Virus genome (UHGV): UHGV-1374997
Reading direction: 5' to 3' (one strand)
Origin: a virus
Length of the DNA: 64,000 nt
Under the pieces are notes generated by a model. The model searched no databases, was not told the origin of the DNA, and worked only from the letters and a program-made list of their open reading frames with translations. Position 1 is the first letter of the stretch. Every line of letters starts with the position of its first letter. Both the position numbers and the translations under genes were made by a program. This document shows, piece by piece, positions 1 to 21,196 of the stretch.

Positions 1-60
1 CTGTACCGTGCTCAAGCTGTACCGTGCTCAAGCTGTACCGTGCTCAAGCTGTACCATGCC
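1..60. repeat. 16-bp tandem direct repeat CTGTACCGTGCTCAAG, about 3.7 copies, truncated by the window edge
   Basis: Direct reading of positions 1-60; last copy degenerate (CTGTACCATGCC). Confidence 0.9.
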
Positions 61-205
61 TATGCACAAAGACGCCTTTCTCTACACCAACAGATACAAG
101 AATCCCTTTATAGCATATCCGATTGAATACACCAAAAGAACCCTTGCATCATGTGATACAAAGAAAAGATCAATAGGCGAGAGGATTTGTCCCTCTCGCC
201 TTTAA
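56..205 (+). CDS. hypothetical small protein (49 aa from ATG at 56)
   Basis: ORF track 8..205; no clear SD, begins inside the tandem repeat; weak. Confidence 0.2.
   Translation: MPMHKDAFLYTNRYKNPFIAYPIEYTKRTLASCDTKKRSIGERICPSRL
176..204. terminator. hairpin GGCGAGAGG-N7-CCTCTCGCC followed by TTT, between convergent ORFs
   Basis: Inverted repeat seen in sequence. Confidence 0.45.
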
Positions 206-214
206 CTATCTGAA

Positions 215-937
215 TTAATGCATTTTAAACAAAATATGCGGCTTTTCCATGCAAAGCGTGCACTCATCCCCGCAGTGAACCGGGGCATAGCCTTCCCTAC
301 CGTACGGGCATATATGATAGCCAAATATTTGACTTTTCTCCTGAATATAGGCTTCATCCCCAAAGTTGATAGATCCATCCGGCAACACAGACTCAACCAT
401 GTTGACGTTGGGAAGCGCCACAAATTCCGAAAAGTCAAAGATATTTGACACTTTCGTATAAAAATAGAAACGCTTTTCCGGGAATTTATCAGCTATCCGT
501 TTCCACATATTGACATACGCTTGTGAAACAAAATCTCCCGAGGAATGAATGCGCACAAAAGGACGTTCGGACTTTTTCAATGAATCCGATGTGATACGTT
601 CAAGACACGCAAGATCATTGAAGGCGAGATACGTATGGAAAAGCCGTTTGTTATAGGTTGGCGCATATTGCCGTTGCGCCTTCCGAGCATAACAGAACCC
701 CGCACAATCGGCGCAGTTCAAACACGTATCAACAGCAAGCAAGTCAAATATAAGAATATTTTTTTCGAGCTTAGAATTGCCCTTGGCAAAAGGATCTCCG
801 ATAAAAACGCCCAACCCATGAATATAGTTTTTTCTATCATTTGTTTTTTCATGATAAGAACGCATTCCCTTGCATTCTTTGATCATACGCAAGGTGTTGA
901 CAGGGGAGAACCGACGACCGAAAAATCCCTTTTCCAT
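215..937 (-). CDS. conserved phage protein with CX2CX2CX3C cysteine cluster (possible Fe-S/Zn site)
   Basis: 240-aa ORF; motif CLNCADCAGFCY; conserved early TIR AAGAGGTTTTATCATG upstream. Confidence 0.75.
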   Translation of the reverse strand: MEKGFFGRRFSPVNTLRMIKECKGMRSYHEKTNDRKNYIHGLGVFIGDPFAKGNSKLEKNILIFDLLAVDTCLNCADCAGFCYARKAQRQYAPTYNKRLFHTYLAFNDLACLERITSDSLKKSERPFVRIHSSGDFVSQAYVNMWKRIADKFPEKRFYFYTKVSNIFDFSEFVALPNVNMVESVLPDGSINFGDEAYIQEKSQIFGYHICPYGREGYAPVHCGDECTLCMEKPHILFKMH

Positions 938-4249: not shown

Positions 4250-4579
4250 TTACAGATAGGAGACAGCGTTGTGAAGGGCAGCAAAAGCTACGCACGGCAA
4301 CGCCATGAATCCGCACATATGAATAACGCTGTTCAGGAAGCCAAGGAAATTCGTATTTTCGGACACTCCGATAATACGCCGCATGACTTCCGAAATACTT
4401 TTTCCGGAAATTCCCCTAAGTCCTCCGCCGCCTACTACAACATAAACGCGGGACTTGACGCCTACGCGACGCGATTCAATGCGAACGCCTGTCCTTTTCA
4501 GGGTAAAATTCGCAAAAGAGAGGGACTTAGAGCAAAAAGGAGCGGAAAGGTAAATACGGCAAGCGGTCGTGAGCTTCAT
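4250..4579 (-). CDS. hypothetical protein (109 aa); antisense plus-strand ORFs with SD also exist here
   Basis: Conserved early TIR AAAGAGGTTATTAAAATG and own promoter favour the minus strand; protein low-complexity (GGGG run). Confidence 0.5.
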   Translation of the reverse strand: MKLTTACRIYLSAPFCSKSLSFANFTLKRTGVRIESRRVGVKSRVYVVVGGGGLRGISGKSISEVMRRIIGVSENTNFLGFLNSVIHMCGFMALPCVAFAALHNAVSYL

Positions 4580-4621
4580 TTTAATAACCTCTTTTTGTGG
4601 TTTGTGTGAACCCGTAAGATC

Positions 4622-4650
4622 AATCTATCCTTGCGGGCTCACACTGTCAA
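4622..4650 (-). promoter_or_regulatory. early promoter TTGACA-N17-TAGATT (minus strand)
   Basis: rc of 4622-4650 gives TTGACAgtgtgagcccgcaaggaTAGATT. Confidence 0.55.
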
Positions 4651-4710
4651 GCGATTTTTAGATATTTTTTTTTTGGATTATCCCTTGTACCCCTACCCCC
4701 GCCCAAAAAC

Positions 4711-4806
4711 TTTAGCTCAGGTCAATATCCCCGCGTCGCTTGAAAATGTTAGCTCAGGTCAATATCCCCGCGTCGCTTGAAAATTTTAGCTCAGGTCAAT
4801 ATCCCC
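4711..4806. repeat. 37-bp tandem direct repeat TTAGCTCAGGTCAATATCCCCGCGTCGCTTGAAAAT(G/T), 2.6 copies
   Basis: Direct reading; copies differ only at the junction base; third copy truncated. Confidence 0.9.
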
Positions 4807-4824
4807 ACCACGTGGAAACCGCTA

Positions 4825-5973
4825 TTATTTTTGAAGAATAAAAGAAACTCTTTCAAGTCTGCACTGGTTCTTTCCTTTGTAGTCGTCATGAGCCTTGACT
4901 TTCGCCTTTTTGATAGTGTACGTGCCGCCTTCTTCTACATCGGGGAAGGTAGAGGTCTTCCAGACGAAAGGAACGCCCGCGCTTGACTTCATGATAAAGA
5001 TGTGCTGTTCGCCGTACATGCCTTCAAAAGTGAATATCTTTTCAATGGTGACTTCCTCGTTAGCAACAATCGTGCCAATGGCGGGAAATTCTACGGTGAT
5101 TTTTTCTTCCGTCTTTTCTTCCAGCTTCTTAGTGTCAGAAGCCTTGCGGATATCAGCAAGAGCGCCGCGAATGCCCGCCGCGATAAAGCCGAACACGCGC
5201 TTTTCGCAGCGGCCCGAGCTTATGATCCGGAAAACATTTTCCTGATAGTCTCCCCTACGTTCTGAATTTTTAATAAATTCAATAGCTTTAAGAGCTTGTT
5301 CGGTATGCTCCGCCGTAACTGTGAAGTCGTAATCACGGGGAAAAGAGCGGTAATGATCGTCGACAAAATCCATGATCTTAGCTGCCGTGCTTCCCGGAGT
5401 GTTAGATTTAACGAAACCGAAGTCCGAGATCATCTTAACAGCTATTGCGCAGATCTCCACAGTAGCATAGTGAGGATCGCTTGCATAATGACCGCCATTG
5501 TCAGAATCCCCAAGAATTCCGGAATTTTCCGCGAAAAATTCGAGCGCGCCCGCTTCCTTTCCCAGAAAATCGATAATGCAAGACGTTCCCACCTGAATAA
5601 TCTTTCCGGCGGCGTCGGAAAGCAGGATGGTCTTAGAACGCTTCCTTTTCGTCCCGCAGTGATCGCAGGTCTTGCGGTCGGCAAAAGGAGTCAGATCAAC
5701 GTCTTCCGTAAAGGCGGGGTTACGGAAGATAAGGCCGCCGCTCGCATGGTCGACCACGGCGGCGAAAGTATAACCGGGAATCGCGGGGTATACGCCGTCT
5801 ACATGAAACTCCACAAAATCCTCATATTCGTAAGTGCCCTTTGTCCTTACGGAAAATTCACGTTCGACCGTGATAGAGAAAGCAGGATCCAATCCGCGCT
5901 TTTCGGCGCGGCGGTTCAGGCTTTCGACCTTTTCGACTATCTTGGAGAAAGTTGACTTGTGGCGGATAGGCAT
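4825..5973 (-). CDS. hypothetical protein (382 aa) with CDHCG zinc-finger-like motif
   Basis: Long ORF with conserved TIR TAAGAGGTTATCACTATG. Confidence 0.8.
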   Translation of the reverse strand: MPIRHKSTFSKIVEKVESLNRRAEKRGLDPAFSITVEREFSVRTKGTYEYEDFVEFHVDGVYPAIPGYTFAAVVDHASGGLIFRNPAFTEDVDLTPFADRKTCDHCGTKRKRSKTILLSDAAGKIIQVGTSCIIDFLGKEAGALEFFAENSGILGDSDNGGHYASDPHYATVEICAIAVKMISDFGFVKSNTPGSTAAKIMDFVDDHYRSFPRDYDFTVTAEHTEQALKAIEFIKNSERRGDYQENVFRIISSGRCEKRVFGFIAAGIRGALADIRKASDTKKLEEKTEEKITVEFPAIGTIVANEEVTIEKIFTFEGMYGEQHIFIMKSSAGVPFVWKTSTFPDVEEGGTYTIKKAKVKAHDDYKGKNQCRLERVSFILQK

Positions 5974-5995
5974 AGTGATAACCTCTTATAGTAAG

Positions 5996-6068
5996 ACATT
6001 CCTAGATTCCGATAAACCTTTTCCCTTGCCGTTGAAAAGACTTTATCGGAATCTAGGAATGTCGTCAA
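5996..6068 (-). promoter_or_regulatory. promoter TTGACG-N17-TAAAGT overlapping a 21-bp perfect inverted repeat (5996-6016 / 6042-6062)
   Basis: ACATTCCTAGATTCCGATAAA ... TTTATCGGAATCTAGGAATGT read directly; operator-like. Confidence 0.5.
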
Positions 6069-6519: not shown

Positions 6520-6630
6520 GCGGATCTATGAAAGAATCGAAAAGAAAAAATATTCGTGCATTCATATATTATATAAGGTATTGCAATTACCATGCCATAA
6601 TATTGGGATAGCTATTCTACGATGATCCCA

Positions 6631-6750
6631 AGTCAATGACACCTGATGACCATCAATGACAGTAGTTGACTGTAGATGACGATTACTGACGATCGTTGAC
6701 AGTCTGTGACGCTTGTTGACGGCTGTTTACGGTCGTTGACGACCGTGCAC
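6631..6750. repeat. 12 consecutive 10-bp units of form NNNNNNTGAC (11 of 12 end in TGAC/TTAC), exact 10-bp phasing
   Basis: agtcaaTGAC acctgaTGAC catcaaTGAC agtagtTGAC tgtagaTGAC gattacTGAC gatcgtTGAC agtctgTGAC gcttgtTGAC ggctgtTTAC ggtcgtTGAC gaccgtGCAC. Confidence 0.9.
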
Positions 6751-7074: not shown

Positions 7075-7545
7075 TTGCGACGCCAAACAAAATCCATCGA
7101 AGCGCATAAGCAAGATGGTACATACAATTCTACGAAGCATGGAGTGGACGTTCCATTGGCGGAAGGACCGCTGAGGAAAATCAATTGGGACAAGATGTCC
7201 TCGGAAGACATTTATACTACGATTGCTGATGTTATCGCGCAGAAGGGACTTGACCATGCTGAATACTCTCTAGCTTTGGAACTCTTAGTTTATGCGGTGA
7301 ATAGGATGCTTAAACTCCGCAGGGATCTGAAAGCCCAAGGCGGCGAGACGTATATTACCCCGACAGGTATTCGGAAAAACAATCCTACAGCGAAACTTGT
7401 TATGGAAGCAGAGAAGCAAGTTGATACGCTCCTGCAAAGGTTTGGGCTTACGCCGGATTCTCGTAGCCGAGTAGCTAGGAAGAAGGGGGAACTTAATCTA
7501 GGGAGTGAAGATTCTTTCGGATCTCCGGAAGGTTTCTTCAATTAA
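7075..7545 (+). CDS. terS: phage terminase small subunit, P27 family
   Basis: 156 aa; C-terminal GLTPDSRSRV motif typical of P27-family TerS; TTG start with SD. Confidence 0.7.
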   Translation: MRRQTKSIEAHKQDGTYNSTKHGVDVPLAEGPLRKINWDKMSSEDIYTTIADVIAQKGLDHAEYSLALELLVYAVNRMLKLRRDLKAQGGETYITPTGIRKNNPTAKLVMEAEKQVDTLLQRFGLTPDSRSRVARKKGELNLGSEDSFGSPEGFFN

Positions 7546-7612: not shown

Positions 7613-7867
7613 CACGATGAGCGCATGAGCAGATGCAGACAGCATATTAAAGTTAAATACTATGATTATTTAAAACGGCATCTAGTTAAAACTCATACAC
7701 CGCTCATAATCATTTAGGTGCTTACAGCGACAAAAATTACACTTGCCTGTTAAGCAATAATGTAAAAGCACCTAGTTATTTAGATAAAGGTTCTCACAGC
7801 AACAACACAACCATTCATACTGGAAGTAGCGTCCACCAAAGGGCGCAGAACCTTGGAGAAAAAAATC
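7613..7867 (+). promoter_or_regulatory. about 255-nt structured 5' leader (nested helices 7618-7623/7701-7706, 7716-7723/7766-7773, 7788-7794/7847-7853 abutting the SD)
   Basis: Complementary segments identified by eye; function unknown. Confidence 0.35.
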
Positions 7868-17735: not shown

Positions 17736-17831
17736 CGGATATTTACTCCTGTGTAACATTTTATACTGTGTAGGTTTTTTGATTATCCAATGTGTGTAGC
17801 AGAAGAGTCGAAGGAAGTCAAGGATGGAGTG

Positions 17832-18232
17832 TGTGGGATCAGTTGGAGCCTGTGATCACTATGTGGTGTGATCAGGACGAAGGCTATAAACTCTTGAAAT
17901 TTTTATTTAAAAAAATTCAACTGATCACAACTGATCACATTTTTCGAAAAAAGATAAACCATATTAATGAGTTGCAATTTTGTGATCAGTTGACACAGCT
18001 CAGGGGTGTCCCAAAGTTTCTTTATATGTGATCTATGGGGGAGGGGTATAGTGTTGCATATATGCAACATGGAAAGAAAGGAACATTTTTTCTTACATAG
18101 ACTTTCTATTTATACTGATCACATGATCACAAAATAAAAATATAGATATAAGTAATTGAAATAATAAAATAAAAAATGTGATCAGTTTGTGATCAGTTAA
18201 ACCGTTTGTGATCACTTCAACCGATCACACAC
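17832..18232. repeat. putative replication origin: about 14 copies of (T)GTGATCA(C/G) iterons in both orientations flanking an AT-rich core (18131-18176) and an 18-bp perfect palindrome TGTTGCATATATGCAACA (18052-18069)
   Basis: Direct reading of an 830-bp non-coding gap next to the primase gene. Confidence 0.6.
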
Positions 18233-18503
18233 CTGTTAAAATCCCATTTTTCGAAGCTCCTCTCCCAATCTGTGGGAAAGCTAAAAACTTAAAGTGTAAC
18301 TCTAAGAATTTCTTTGTAGTTGAAATAACTCGACTTTTTATTTACGGTTTAATTCGTAAAGTTTCCGTTTAAAACTCTTTTAAAAGCCGGAATTTCTTAT
18401 CGACCGATTTAATTGACTTTTTTATTTTGGGTTTCTTTTAGTTTTAATTCGGAAAGTTTTCCGGTTTAAAAGAAACCAAAACTCTTTTAAACGGATCAAA
18501 AGA

Positions 18504-18567
18504 CGAAAAGAAGATCCGAATCTCGGAGCCCGACAGATCGGCAAATGAGATTCGGATCTTCTTTTCG
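18504..18567. terminator. 21-bp perfect inverted repeat CGAAAAGAAGATCCGAATCTC / GAGATTCGGATCTTCTTTTCG, 22-nt loop
   Basis: Immediately 3' of the primase stop on the minus strand; preceded by two related 60-80-bp direct repeats (18331-18492). Confidence 0.55.
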
Positions 18568-18592
18568 TCCGAGTTTAGGTTTTAGGTTTGGA

Positions 18593-21196
18593 TTAATCCA
18601 TATTCAATTCTTCAAATTCAGTTTTTGGGATATTAAGATACTCGCAGAATAATTCGACGCATTTTTCTTTGGAGGGGAAATCCCAGACTCGCATCCTATC
18701 AGTCCTGTCCGAAACGGTGATAACTTTTCGGTGGGAGTCATCCAGACTAAAGATTCTCTTTGTTTCAATCCTGAATTTTTTAAGAGACACAATGTTGTAA
18801 GAGCTTGCGCGAGTCCTAACCATCTTCTGGGTGAACTTATCATGAGCATCAGTCATCGACAAGTAGGTGGGCCAGTTTCTATTTTCTGAATTTTCAAATA
18901 GCTTCGAGGCTCTTTCATCTTCAATTTCTGCCCGAGGATATACTCCATCAGAAATGACATCATACCACCATTGCTGTACGCTATTCAAAGAAAGGAGTTT
19001 CTGTTCCATGAGAGCCTTCGTCTGGGGAGCCTCTCGGATATTCACTCCGCTAAAGTCATAATGTTTCAGATAGACGTAAAGGGCCTCGTCACCGCCATTC
19101 TCAAATTCCTCATTAAGGTCTTTGAAGTATCCTTGAGTGTCCTGCTTATGCTTCGAGGACACATCGAGAACAAAGAATCTGCGGGCGTCCTTACCTGCGG
19201 GGATAACCCAGTCCTCGTTAGAAGACATGATGAACCGGGAGCAGGAATGCACAGAGTATGATTCGAAGCCTTTCCTTTCGATCACCTGAGTACGTTCCGT
19301 GATCTGTGATTTCAGAATGCTTTCGTCCTGTTTGCTTCCGGCCCAGACAGCTTCGTCGAGATAGATAAGGACTTTCCCTTCGGTGGCTCCGTTGAAGTTA
19401 GAAAAGTAATGCTGCCTATTCGCTACGGACAGGCCGTGCTTACCCAACATGCTCATGAACGGGGATACGAAAGAGCCTTTACCAGTACCTTCCTCACCAC
19501 GAAGCACAACGGCTACGCCGGGCTTATCCTCCGGCTTTTGGACCATATGTGCAAGCCAAGCCCACATATACCGTTGGTGGTCTTCATTACCATCACAGAT
19601 TACTTCATTGACATGGCTCCTAAACAATTTGCAGCGTTCAGTGGCCTCGGCAATTCCCATCTCCGAGTTTGCGTATTTAAATCCACGCCAGAGATTGTAA
19701 TAGCCTTTTGGAGCCCCCTGCGGAGCAAATTCAACCCCACGGTATTGACGGCGGTTCTTGCTTTCCATCCACGCTTTGAAGAGGGGCTTTTGCTTCACGT
19801 TTCCTTTTGCATCAAGAAACTCGAATGCGGGAAGATTTGCGGAGAACTCTTCGGCGGCCCTAGGAGTAAGGAATTTGGATTCCCCGTCAGGATCTTCGTA
19901 AATGATTGCCGATTTCCCTCCGATAAAAGTAAAAGCGAAAAGGCCATTCATTTTCTTGATCAGAGGATGTACGTAGTCCTGATCGGAATCTTCTTCCTTT
20001 TCGGCGTTTTTAACAATATCGGATGATGAATCCTCCGAATTTCCGAAAGGATTATCCTCTACACTGGTCGGGGATTCCTTGTTCTCGGTTTTAGGTTCTT
20101 CCGTTCCATAGTCTTTCATAATCATCTCAAACATGCGTTCGGCATAGATTGGGCAGCTTCCACAGACCCTCGAACGCTCTTTTCCCAGAATCGTAATCAT
20201 CGCTCCGCAACCGAAATCGCACGGGGATTTCTCGTCAGTATCCCACACGCTTTCAAGATGGTGCGTCCTGTCCATAGCCGAAGTATAACCTTGAGACTCT
20301 TCGAAGTTTTCGAGAAAGTCGACTACGAGAGGATGGTTAATGGCTTCCGGCTTTGTGAATCCCGCAGATCTGAGAGCGGGGACAATGGCGGAGAAGCACA
20401 TCTGATTGAAGGAATAGTCTCCAGCTTTCTTTGTAAGTCCAAGAATCGCCTTTAGGCAAGGAACGATTTCCTTGTCCTTAATATTAAGCGGGGCTTGCTT
20501 CCTTTCTGAGCGGGCTTTGATGGCCCCTACGACATTCGCTTCACATCTACGGAAAAGATCGCTCAGATAGTCAATTCTGGCGGGTTTCTTCGCTTGTTCG
20601 TCAGGTTGAGGCGATAGAGCTTTGCTCTGGAAATATTCGATGGTATTATTGATAAGCTCGTCCGCGCTAATACGAATTTTGTATCTGCCGTTGGAACGAA
20701 GCCTATTCGCAATTCGGAACATCTTTCCACGCTTCATAGCGAACATGGAATAGTCGAGAGTCTTATAGCCTTCCTCGCTAGGGAAAAGTTCAAGGCACAC
20801 TTCTTTGTAAATCCAAGGAAGGACGCGATGCCCATTTTCCGCGCCAAAAGCCTCCGCAGGAACGACGATATGAAAACCCTTCTGCCCCGAATAATAAATT
20901 TTAAGAGACTCCGAATCCAATCCCAAAAGAACCAATTTATTCAAAGCATTTACTGTATCGATACGGCTCTCCTCAGCATCTTTTGAGTCGAAATCGAGAG
21001 TCAAATCCCCATATCGTACTACAGCCAAATTAAGGATATCCTTATTTTCATCCTTATAATTGGGCTCCGTTTCAAAAGACATTGACGTAGAGAACATAGC
21101 GATATTCGGCACTTTGTCGATTTTACAAATCTTCCAAGCGCTTTCCCTTTCTTCAACTTTCCAATATACAAAGCGTTGCATATATGCCACCCTCAT
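18593..21196 (-). CDS. bifunctional primase-polymerase (AEP PrimPol N-domain) + P4/D5-type SF3 helicase
   Basis: SGQKGFHIVV primpol motif; Walker A GEEGTGKGSFV, Walker B IYLDEA. Confidence 0.85.
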   Translation of the reverse strand: MRVAYMQRFVYWKVEERESAWKICKIDKVPNIAMFSTSMSFETEPNYKDENKDILNLAVVRYGDLTLDFDSKDAEESRIDTVNALNKLVLLGLDSESLKIYYSGQKGFHIVVPAEAFGAENGHRVLPWIYKEVCLELFPSEEGYKTLDYSMFAMKRGKMFRIANRLRSNGRYKIRISADELINNTIEYFQSKALSPQPDEQAKKPARIDYLSDLFRRCEANVVGAIKARSERKQAPLNIKDKEIVPCLKAILGLTKKAGDYSFNQMCFSAIVPALRSAGFTKPEAINHPLVVDFLENFEESQGYTSAMDRTHHLESVWDTDEKSPCDFGCGAMITILGKERSRVCGSCPIYAERMFEMIMKDYGTEEPKTENKESPTSVEDNPFGNSEDSSSDIVKNAEKEEDSDQDYVHPLIKKMNGLFAFTFIGGKSAIIYEDPDGESKFLTPRAAEEFSANLPAFEFLDAKGNVKQKPLFKAWMESKNRRQYRGVEFAPQGAPKGYYNLWRGFKYANSEMGIAEATERCKLFRSHVNEVICDGNEDHQRYMWAWLAHMVQKPEDKPGVAVVLRGEEGTGKGSFVSPFMSMLGKHGLSVANRQHYFSNFNGATEGKVLIYLDEAVWAGSKQDESILKSQITERTQVIERKGFESYSVHSCSRFIMSSNEDWVIPAGKDARRFFVLDVSSKHKQDTQGYFKDLNEEFENGGDEALYVYLKHYDFSGVNIREAPQTKALMEQKLLSLNSVQQWWYDVISDGVYPRAEIEDERASKLFENSENRNWPTYLSMTDAHDKFTQKMVRTRASSYNIVSLKKFRIETKRIFSLDDSHRKVITVSDRTDRMRVWDFPSKEKCVELFCEYLNIPKTEFEELNMD

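Follow-up and report, generated by a model that had tools for sequence, protein, structure and literature searches.

The stretch of DNA analysed in this study, hereafter the window, comprises 64,000 nucleotides of the virus genome UHGV-1374997 and belongs to a tailed phage. It carries six tRNA genes and genes for a portal, a major head protein, a DNA polymerase A and a small terminase, together with those for an NrS-1-like primase-helicase, a Dda-like helicase, RtcB, an RNA ligase and NrdD. The portal is about 35% identical to portals of Ruminococcus, Oscillospirales and Christensenellales phages from human faeces, and the phage group is uncultured and appears to have gut Clostridia as its hosts. 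The phage itself looks virulent, and integrase and partition genes were not seen in the 64 kb. Close relatives, with 85-95% DNA identity and genomes of about 86-90 kb, come from IMG/VR sample 3300045988 and from ENA/Logan assemblies, and no close relative of the window genome was found in the 50,697 phage records that we searched. We also observed two adjacent open reading frames, at 7853-9389 (plus strand) and 9400-10744, with DUF2828/DUF7788 (VWA-like) domains. This pair resembles one gene split by a frameshift (overlap 8391-8437) and is followed by the cluster of six tRNA genes.

The locus of interest is a 37-bp tandem repeat array in the early region of this phage, and all genes around it are on the minus strand (Table 1). 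A preliminary description of this DNA had claimed that a real 37-bp tandem repeat lies between a 382-aa gene and the next early cassette, and that it is non-coding and not CRISPR-like. All of this is borne out by our analysis. Tandem Repeats Finder (TRF) detects 2.6 copies of period 37 at 4712-4806, with 98% matches and a score of 183, and the array extends from 15 nt past the stop codon of this gene to about 50 nt upstream of the -35 hexamer in the promoter of the 109-aa ORF. The period is no multiple of 3, the single ORF inside the array is unconserved, and the units are contiguous, without any spacer sequence between them. The 382-aa gene and the array are not separated by any predicted terminator, nor is one predicted elsewhere within 4580-4830. 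Between array and promoter there is a G-run that matches the canonical G-quadruplex pattern, and two relatives, L001 and L002, keep just three of its four G-tracts. The A/T tract is also conserved before other early promoters in relatives, and the imperfect inverted repeat around the -10 hexamer looks like an operator or a PeSL-like stem-loop. It is also observed that the early promoters each sit inside their own long inverted repeat, with arms that are perfect up to 22 nt (window 4604-4644, 5995-6063 and 1657-1718; L003 10770-10864). When the 109-aa ORF is compared with its relatives, 83 of the 130 substitutions fall at third codon positions (83, 25 and 22 by phase), and because substitutions concentrate at these positions this minus-strand ORF is the real gene. 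A public gene call for the same sequence (L054 9365-9703) places a 112-aa ORF on the opposite strand (window 4250-4609). Searches of Pfam, PHROGs and NCBIfam gave no annotation for the small early proteins that flank the array. Mosaic breakpoints among relatives occur at promoters and RBSs (window 4595 and 5978) and not in the array, so that the recombination site once proposed for the repeat finds no direct support.

Table 1. Features at the array site (site A) and at the start of the second locus (site B), in window coordinates
Feature	Position	Strand	Basis or remark
382-aa early gene, upstream of array	4825..5973	-	phrog_2319
Unit 1	4774..4810	-	TGGTGGGGATATTGACCTGAGCTAAAATTTTCAAGCG; 31.7 bits, relatives-only matrix
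Unit 2	4737..4773	-	ACGCGGGGATATTGACCTGAGCTAACATTTTCAAGCG; 28.6 bits, relatives-only matrix; TRF
Unit 3	4700..4736	-	ACGCGGGGATATTGACCTGAGCTAAAGTTTTTGGGCG; 27.9 bits, relatives-only matrix
G-run GGGCGGGGGTAGGGGTACAAGGG, between array and promoter	4682..4704	-	read from sequence
A/T tract CAAAAAAAAAATATCTAAAAATCGC, directly 5' of -35, UP-element-like	4651..4675	-	read from sequence
Early promoter TTGACA-17-TAGATT, sigma-70/sigma-A type, for 109-aa gene	4622..4650	-	promoter scan
Imperfect inverted repeat GTGTGAGCCCGCAAGGA / TCTTACGGGTTCACAC around -10	4604..4644	-	kept in L002 and L009
109-aa early gene, downstream of array, strong RBS	4250..4579	-	codon-position analysis
5' part of site-B module	1..201	-	rest past window start; full module read in relatives and L054
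Module terminator hairpin	201..175	-	prediction
Module promoter TTGGTG-17-TATAAA	135..107	-	promoter scan, relatives
16-bp array GCTTGAGCACGGTACA, first copies	59..1	-	TRF

Read in gene orientation, the array unit is GGGGATATTGACCTGAGCTAA(A/C)ATTTTCAAGCGACGC, and its 21-mer core, GGGGATATTGACCTGAGCTAA, occurs three times against 0.01 occurrences expected in shuffled sequence. A position matrix from the relatives resolves three full 37-bp units that lie head to tail across 4700-4810, a span slightly wider than that given by TRF. Unit 1 has the canonical box 1, GGTGGGGA, at its start and GAGCTAA as box 2, whereas units 2 and 3 both start with CGCGGGGA. The tail (3' half) of unit 3 is orthologous to the last unit at site A of L001 and L002. 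Because the 21-nt core that is identical in all three window units takes in a normally variable spacer, ATATTGACCTG, the window units are judged to derive from an existing unit by recent duplication or homogenisation, with local amplification to three copies. Two independent assemblies, L054 (ERZ28597954) and L056 (ERZ18683141), share this array down to its single A/C difference, and in a third sample the short-read contigs end within the array. Since the array is identical in independent assemblies, it is not an assembly artefact and is stable in the window lineage. The copy number of three is equal in L054 and L056, which is a weak test with just two complete instances.

Taken together, the window and its relatives provide 35 distinct units, and these yield one asymmetric two-box consensus, which on the early-gene strand reads A-G-G-T-G-G-G-G-R-n-y-k-C-r-A-n-C-C-r-A-G-C-T-A-A-C-A-T-T-T-T-y-g-r-r-n-n. 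The two boxes, AGGTGGGG and RAGCTAAC-ATTTT, are about 19 bp apart, with variable spacers. With a scoring matrix built from the units of the relatives alone, the window being left out, the window units score 28-32 bits and the best other position in the 64 kb scores 0.9 bits. Because no position outside the array exceeds this value, the motif is site-specific rather than dispersed. It occurs solely as tandem arrays, at one or two loci that each precede an early promoter, and all units are oriented along early transcription. The second of these loci, site B, lies downstream of a GP88-like gene (215..937), just past window position 1, and contains 4-5 diverged units with 67-71% identity. This array is found in every relative that reaches site B and also in the window lineage (L054). 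In the site-B alignment of all nine genomes, 61 of the 75 box columns (those of AGGTGGGG and AGCTAAC) are invariant, versus 30 of the 99 spacer columns (Fisher p ~2e-11). When L013, which is without unit 5, is omitted, the corresponding counts in eight genomes are 71 of 75 and 57 of 99 (Fisher p ~1e-8). Because box and spacer columns have the same phylogeny, this difference points to a sequence-specific constraint on the boxes. The alignments show purifying selection on both boxes, and the unit is an old, conserved element. As a side observation, an 18-bp tandem repeat, GAAGCTAACATCCAGAGA, is present in 2.3-4.3 copies within an ORF of about 324 aa downstream of site B (L009 11099-11176, L008 13473-13532, L003 13489-13530). 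The 9-mer AGCTAACAT is common to this repeat and to box 2 of the 37-bp unit, which may be coincidence.

A non-coding module of about 750 bp has the site-B array at its 3' end. The module opens with a terminator hairpin, followed by a promoter that lies within a long inverted repeat, by a 16-bp array and by a micro-ORF with a Shine-Dalgarno (SD) sequence. After a stretch rich in G+C come direct and inverted repeats of CAATCAA and a conserved GGTCGCGTGCGCTCTA element, then the 37-bp units and lastly AT-rich DNA, which contains a TTGCAT-17-TAGnnn promoter. In relatives the hexamers TTGnnn...TATAAA of the module promoter are conserved and the 17-18-nt spacer between them is variable. The 16-bp array is hypervariable, with 1.5 to at least 8 copies among relatives, and many contigs end there. 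It is located just downstream of the conserved promoter, within a 9-bp stem formed by GGCGTCTTT...AAAGACGCT (examples are L004 7545-7665 and L009 8459-8585). The micro-ORF, which is conserved and has its own SD, occurs in the variants MKETKRPHNRFMKEQRDRQ, MKEKKRPQKRFMWEQSTRQ, MKEKKRPQKRFMRE and MKDAKRSQNLFM (L003 10954-11031; L054 ~14186-14245; L002 ~2434-2478; L016 128-166) and may encode a leader peptide or a micro-protein. The gene after the site-B promoter varies among relatives and the array is kept. The arrays at sites A and B end 27-67 bp upstream of the -35 hexamer of a TTGACA/TTGCAT-17-TAGnnn promoter, the distances from the last unit being 27, 33, 36/50, about 55 and 67 bp. In the 50,697 phage records, DNA searches for near and distant similarity gave no match to the array, its flanks or the whole module. 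Exact two-unit patterns searched against IMG/VR, GTDB genomes and JGI/ENA metagenomes recovered just one narrow phage group (85-95% identity), and the remaining pattern matches (L019-L028, L024, L058, L059) are single chance matches or unrelated coding repeats. Homologues of the GP88-like protein at 45-54% identity are located in unrelated phage contexts, without module or array.

Comparison among the relatives reveals that site A is polymorphic. The window lineage has three near-identical units at this site, while L001/L005 and L002/L004 have two diverged units that are 43 bp apart. In L003, L006, L007 and L008 other cassettes replace both the 382-aa gene and the array, and in L009 the 382-aa gene is truncated by a deletion that brings it directly up to the promoter. 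Ahead of the units in L001/L005 and L002/L004 stands a shortened module copy, which in L001 and L002 has a terminator, promoter and micro-ORF, and the window keeps the units alone. The five relatives without an array at site A keep the same or an equivalent early promoter, and because of this the site-A array is dispensable and is not needed for promoter function. The copy-number comparison proposed in the preliminary description, which gives three, two or no units at site A, finds variation among relatives but constancy between L054 and L056. The same description had named an absent or variable repeat, explained by recent slippage, as what would speak against a function. It is true that the array is absent from most relatives at site A and that its copies appear recently duplicated, but the unit itself is old and has a second conserved locus.

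We examined a number of other classes to which such an array might belong. Neither strand of the array folds better than shuffled sequence (z-scores of +0.9 and +1.3, and +0.2 for a further fold), which also answers the earlier proposal to predict the structure of transcripts in both orientations. Among Rfam 15 families only tRNAs reach the gathering score, and low-score miRNA-type matches elsewhere reflect hairpins, none of them over the array. An intrinsic terminator or attenuator, the latter once suggested for this repeat, was rejected on the two z-scores of +0.9 and +1.3 and on the empty terminator prediction. A CRISPR array was rejected with the contiguous units of period 37, the conservation of two short boxes alone across the 35 units and the lack of a stable fold. 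A tRNA-like reading of plus-strand TAGCTCAGG / GGTTCGAACC was likewise discarded, as neither ARAGORN nor Rfam gives a match there and the putative stems fail to pair. A sigma-70/sigma-A promoter in each unit does not fit either, since the promoter scan is empty across 4700-4810 and TTGACC and TAAAAT lie 5 bp apart. Look-alikes of sigma-54, ECF, sigma-B, Spo0A, CodY, LexA and DnaA box sites were checked by eye, and none of them fits all units. The recognition site of the NrS-1 primase is GTGG (PMC8718748), and its occurrence within box 1 is a 4-mer match that carries no weight. Scanning of about 40 proteins with Pfam, PHROGs or NCBIfam revealed no HTH, RHH, sigma factor or ParB domain and no match to ParA or ParM. 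With no partition genes among these proteins, and with downstream genes at site B that vary among relatives, the earlier idea of a centromere-like array is not sustained. The near-identity of the copies (98%) might suggest a neutral minisatellite, but this two-box unit is also conserved at site B, where boxes exceed spacers in conservation.

Two other repeat regions of the window are relevant to the role of the array. The first is a non-coding gap of 830 bp at 17760-18592, directly downstream of the NrS-1-like primase-helicase gene (18593..21196, minus strand). It holds at least 13 TGTGATCA(G/C)TT motifs in both orientations, which flank very AT-rich DNA (18125-18175), as well as a perfect hairpin with a 23-bp stem at 18502-18569, and is the best candidate for a replication origin in the window. 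The other region, at 6630-6750, contains about 13 TTGACR, or more broadly (A/T)TGAC(A/G), hexamers with a 10-bp phase, and it separates the leftward early operon from the divergent Terminase_4 small-terminase gene (7075-7545, plus strand). Its copy number varies among relatives, and contigs of two relatives break there. This is a likely pac or TerS-binding region. Because better candidates for both functions exist, the 37-bp array is probably neither an origin nor a packaging site, and for the same reason transcriptional control is the simplest role to consider for it.

We tentatively suggest that the array is a cooperative protein-binding array that controls the adjacent early promoter, a reading that is the best of those considered and to which we give clearly less than an even chance. 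A sequence-specific DNA-binding protein, encoded by the phage or by the host, would recognise the 37-bp units, load cooperatively along the array and act on the strong sigma-A-type early promoter directly downstream. Possible effects would be the timing or shut-off of early transcription, or its insulation from upstream read-through. Three steps of this reading are inferred, namely a protein as the ligand, DNA as the level at which it acts and the adjacent promoter as its target. A duplex-DNA binding array is suggested because the unit is long, asymmetric and two-boxed, the units form tandem arrays of fixed orientation, an early promoter is adjacent and there is no RNA structure. The operator or binding array of the preliminary description is thus upheld as far as boxes under purifying selection and arrays that always stand before early promoters can support it, but no DNA-binding protein came out of the roughly 40 proteins scanned. 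Other observations also argue against the binding array. The variable distance to the -35 hexamer (27-67 bp) is hard to reconcile with an activator whose action depends on the face of the helix, the 37-bp spacing corresponds to 3.5 helical turns and is unusual for cooperative binding on the same face, and site A is dispensable. In addition, transcription probably runs through the array, since no terminator precedes it in the window and a conserved promoter of the full module is directed into it, and a role at the RNA level is therefore conceivable.

Several other explanations have to be weighed against a protein-binding array. The array at site A could be a functionless remnant of a module copy that was mostly deleted, with the unit left behind then duplicated through replication slippage or unequal crossing-over and with function at site B alone. 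This is somewhat unlikely in our judgement. The shortened full module at site A of L001 and L002, of which the window has just the units, the five relatives entirely without the array and the recent duplication marked by the shared 21-nt core and its normally variable spacer are all consistent with a remnant. However, both boxes are intact in all three window units and in the old, diverged site-A units of L001 and L002, the array is unchanged in two independent samples while the neighbouring 16-bp array varies from 1.5 to at least 8 copies, and an amplification from one or two units to three is not decay. It is also conceivable, though unlikely, that the units act as RNA. As single-stranded repeated motifs of a long untranslated leader or of a 3' UTR, they would then be contacted by an RNA-binding protein or, via the SD-like AGGUGG, by the 30S subunit, with mRNA stabilisation, antitermination or titration of a factor as possible effects. 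Such a role would agree with the orientation of all units along early transcription, with the absence of a terminator between the 382-aa gene and the array, with the conserved promoter TTGnnn-17/18-TATAAA that reads into the array in the full module, and with an unstructured array, as expected for a platform for single-strand binding. Moreover, box 1 at site B pairs with the anti-SD at -8.5 to -12.7 kcal/mol, like real RBSs of this phage, and in the module a boxA-like element, GYGCTCTAA, stands ahead of the arrays. In the window, however, units 2 and 3, which start with CGCGGGGA, pair only weakly with the anti-SD (-5.7 kcal/mol), so that SD mimicry is lost there and is not a conserved feature, nor does it account for box 2 (AGCTAAC). 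The boxA-like element is absent from the window site, a 7/8 match to the lambda boxA is expected by chance about 0.3 times per 750 bp by our estimate, and no RNA-binding protein was found among the proteins scanned. A further, distinctly unlikely reading is that the units are read-out sites of a factor that defines a new self-contained, duplicable control module of the early region, moving between cassette boundaries. Such a module would comprise the terminator, the promoter in its long inverted repeat, the 16-bp array, a micro-ORF of 12-19 aa, CAATCAA, the 37-bp array and the early promoter. Through the leader RNA it might serve as a sponge for proteins or a platform for antitermination, or else it might be a checkpoint on the stepwise entry of the genome and the takeover of the host.

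The remaining explanations assign the units to replication or to transcription start. We consider it very unlikely that the arrays are iterons of an origin or accessory replication site, of the SPP1 oriL/oriR or P4 ori/crr type, bound by the primase-helicase as initiator, with transcription from adjacent promoters helping to open the DNA. The repeats are direct and asymmetric, three in the window and four to five at site B, and are found at one or two unique loci. The site-B array leads into an AT-rich stretch and three repeat classes are clustered in its module. There is also a precedent in SPP1, which has two distant origins made of direct repeats plus an AT-rich unwinding element (PMC6316719). 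Against iterons stands the far more origin-like region at 17760-18592. The primase-helicase gene lies 14 kb from the array and has this iteron-like, AT-rich region of its own directly downstream. In addition, a G-rich run and not an evident unwinding element directly follows the window array, the 37-bp spacing is atypical for iterons, and the site-A array is absent from most relatives. Near site A the G-rich run is succeeded by the 25-bp A/T tract, which is the upstream region of a promoter, and the AT-rich DNA at site B likewise contains a promoter. Finally, a phage-specific sigma factor or RNA polymerase might use each unit as its promoter, and the array would then represent tandem middle promoters upstream of a host-type early promoter. 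Promoters of single-subunit RNA polymerases resemble in form a long, asymmetric, conserved unit with a start site in a G-run. The unit has this shape, its G-run could be such a start site, and its orientation matches the downstream genes. Nevertheless, this explanation is highly improbable. The motif is upstream of no other gene in the 64 kb, where the best score outside the array is 0.9 bits versus 28-32 bits, and a phage-specific promoter class was rejected on these scores. Furthermore, no sigma factor or phage RNA polymerase was detected among the proteins scanned, and the unit contains no -35/-10 pair at a spacing of 16-18 bp.

If the units are binding sites, they would mark a regulator-operator pair that controls early expression in a phage group without annotation of its early region. 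The two-box consensus provides a concrete bait for seeking the regulator, for example by DAP-seq, pull-down or screening of protein-DNA structures. Similar genomes with three copies, two copies or no array at one promoter also constitute a natural experiment on promoter tuning. The finding has no bearing on any long-standing open question.

The array shares features with several known systems. Like the oriL/oriR iterons of SPP1, which are bound by gp38, it consists of several direct, asymmetric repeats at two loci of one genome that lie far apart, in non-coding or boundary DNA, with AT-rich DNA and transcription signals adjacent, and one sequence-specific protein is presumed to bind (PMC6316719). 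It differs from them in its 37-bp period, in the two boxes per unit, in having no linked initiator and in the dispensability of site A. The window site also has no evident unwinding element directly beside the array, and a better origin candidate lies beside the primase-helicase gene. Centromere-operator arrays are known from parC of R1 and pSK41 and from sopC of F, which has 12 repeats of 43 bp, and in arrays of this type a small adaptor protein binds cooperatively and also represses a promoter. The present array resembles them in that tandem direct repeats of tens of bp stand just upstream of a promoter. In contrast to them, neither ParA/ParM nor adaptor genes were found nearby, and the downstream genes differ among relatives. 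In its non-coding location and in a unit length within the range of CRISPR repeats, the array is also similar to CRISPR arrays and to the solitary repeat units of phages. Unlike those, it is without spacers, conserves 15-20 of 37 positions between units, and has neither cas genes nor a hairpin. The pre-early DNA of phage T5 contains a non-coding, repeat-rich 'injection stop' region. Our phage has a comparable long non-coding stretch in its early region with several classes of direct and inverted repeats, a likeness of form alone, and it gives no evidence of the two-step DNA transfer or terminal repeats of T5. The PeSL cassettes of T4-type phages (PMC2839356, PMC4122927) are similar in their small mosaic early cassettes, in boundaries made of a promoter plus an inverted repeat and in the breakpoints that fall there. 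PeSLs, however, are single promoter-terminator motifs, whereas the two-box tandem array is an extra element on two promoters here. The features tested did not place the array in any of these specific families, and it appears to be a tandem direct-repeat cis element of a phage control region that is specific, in the collections searched, to one narrow phage group.
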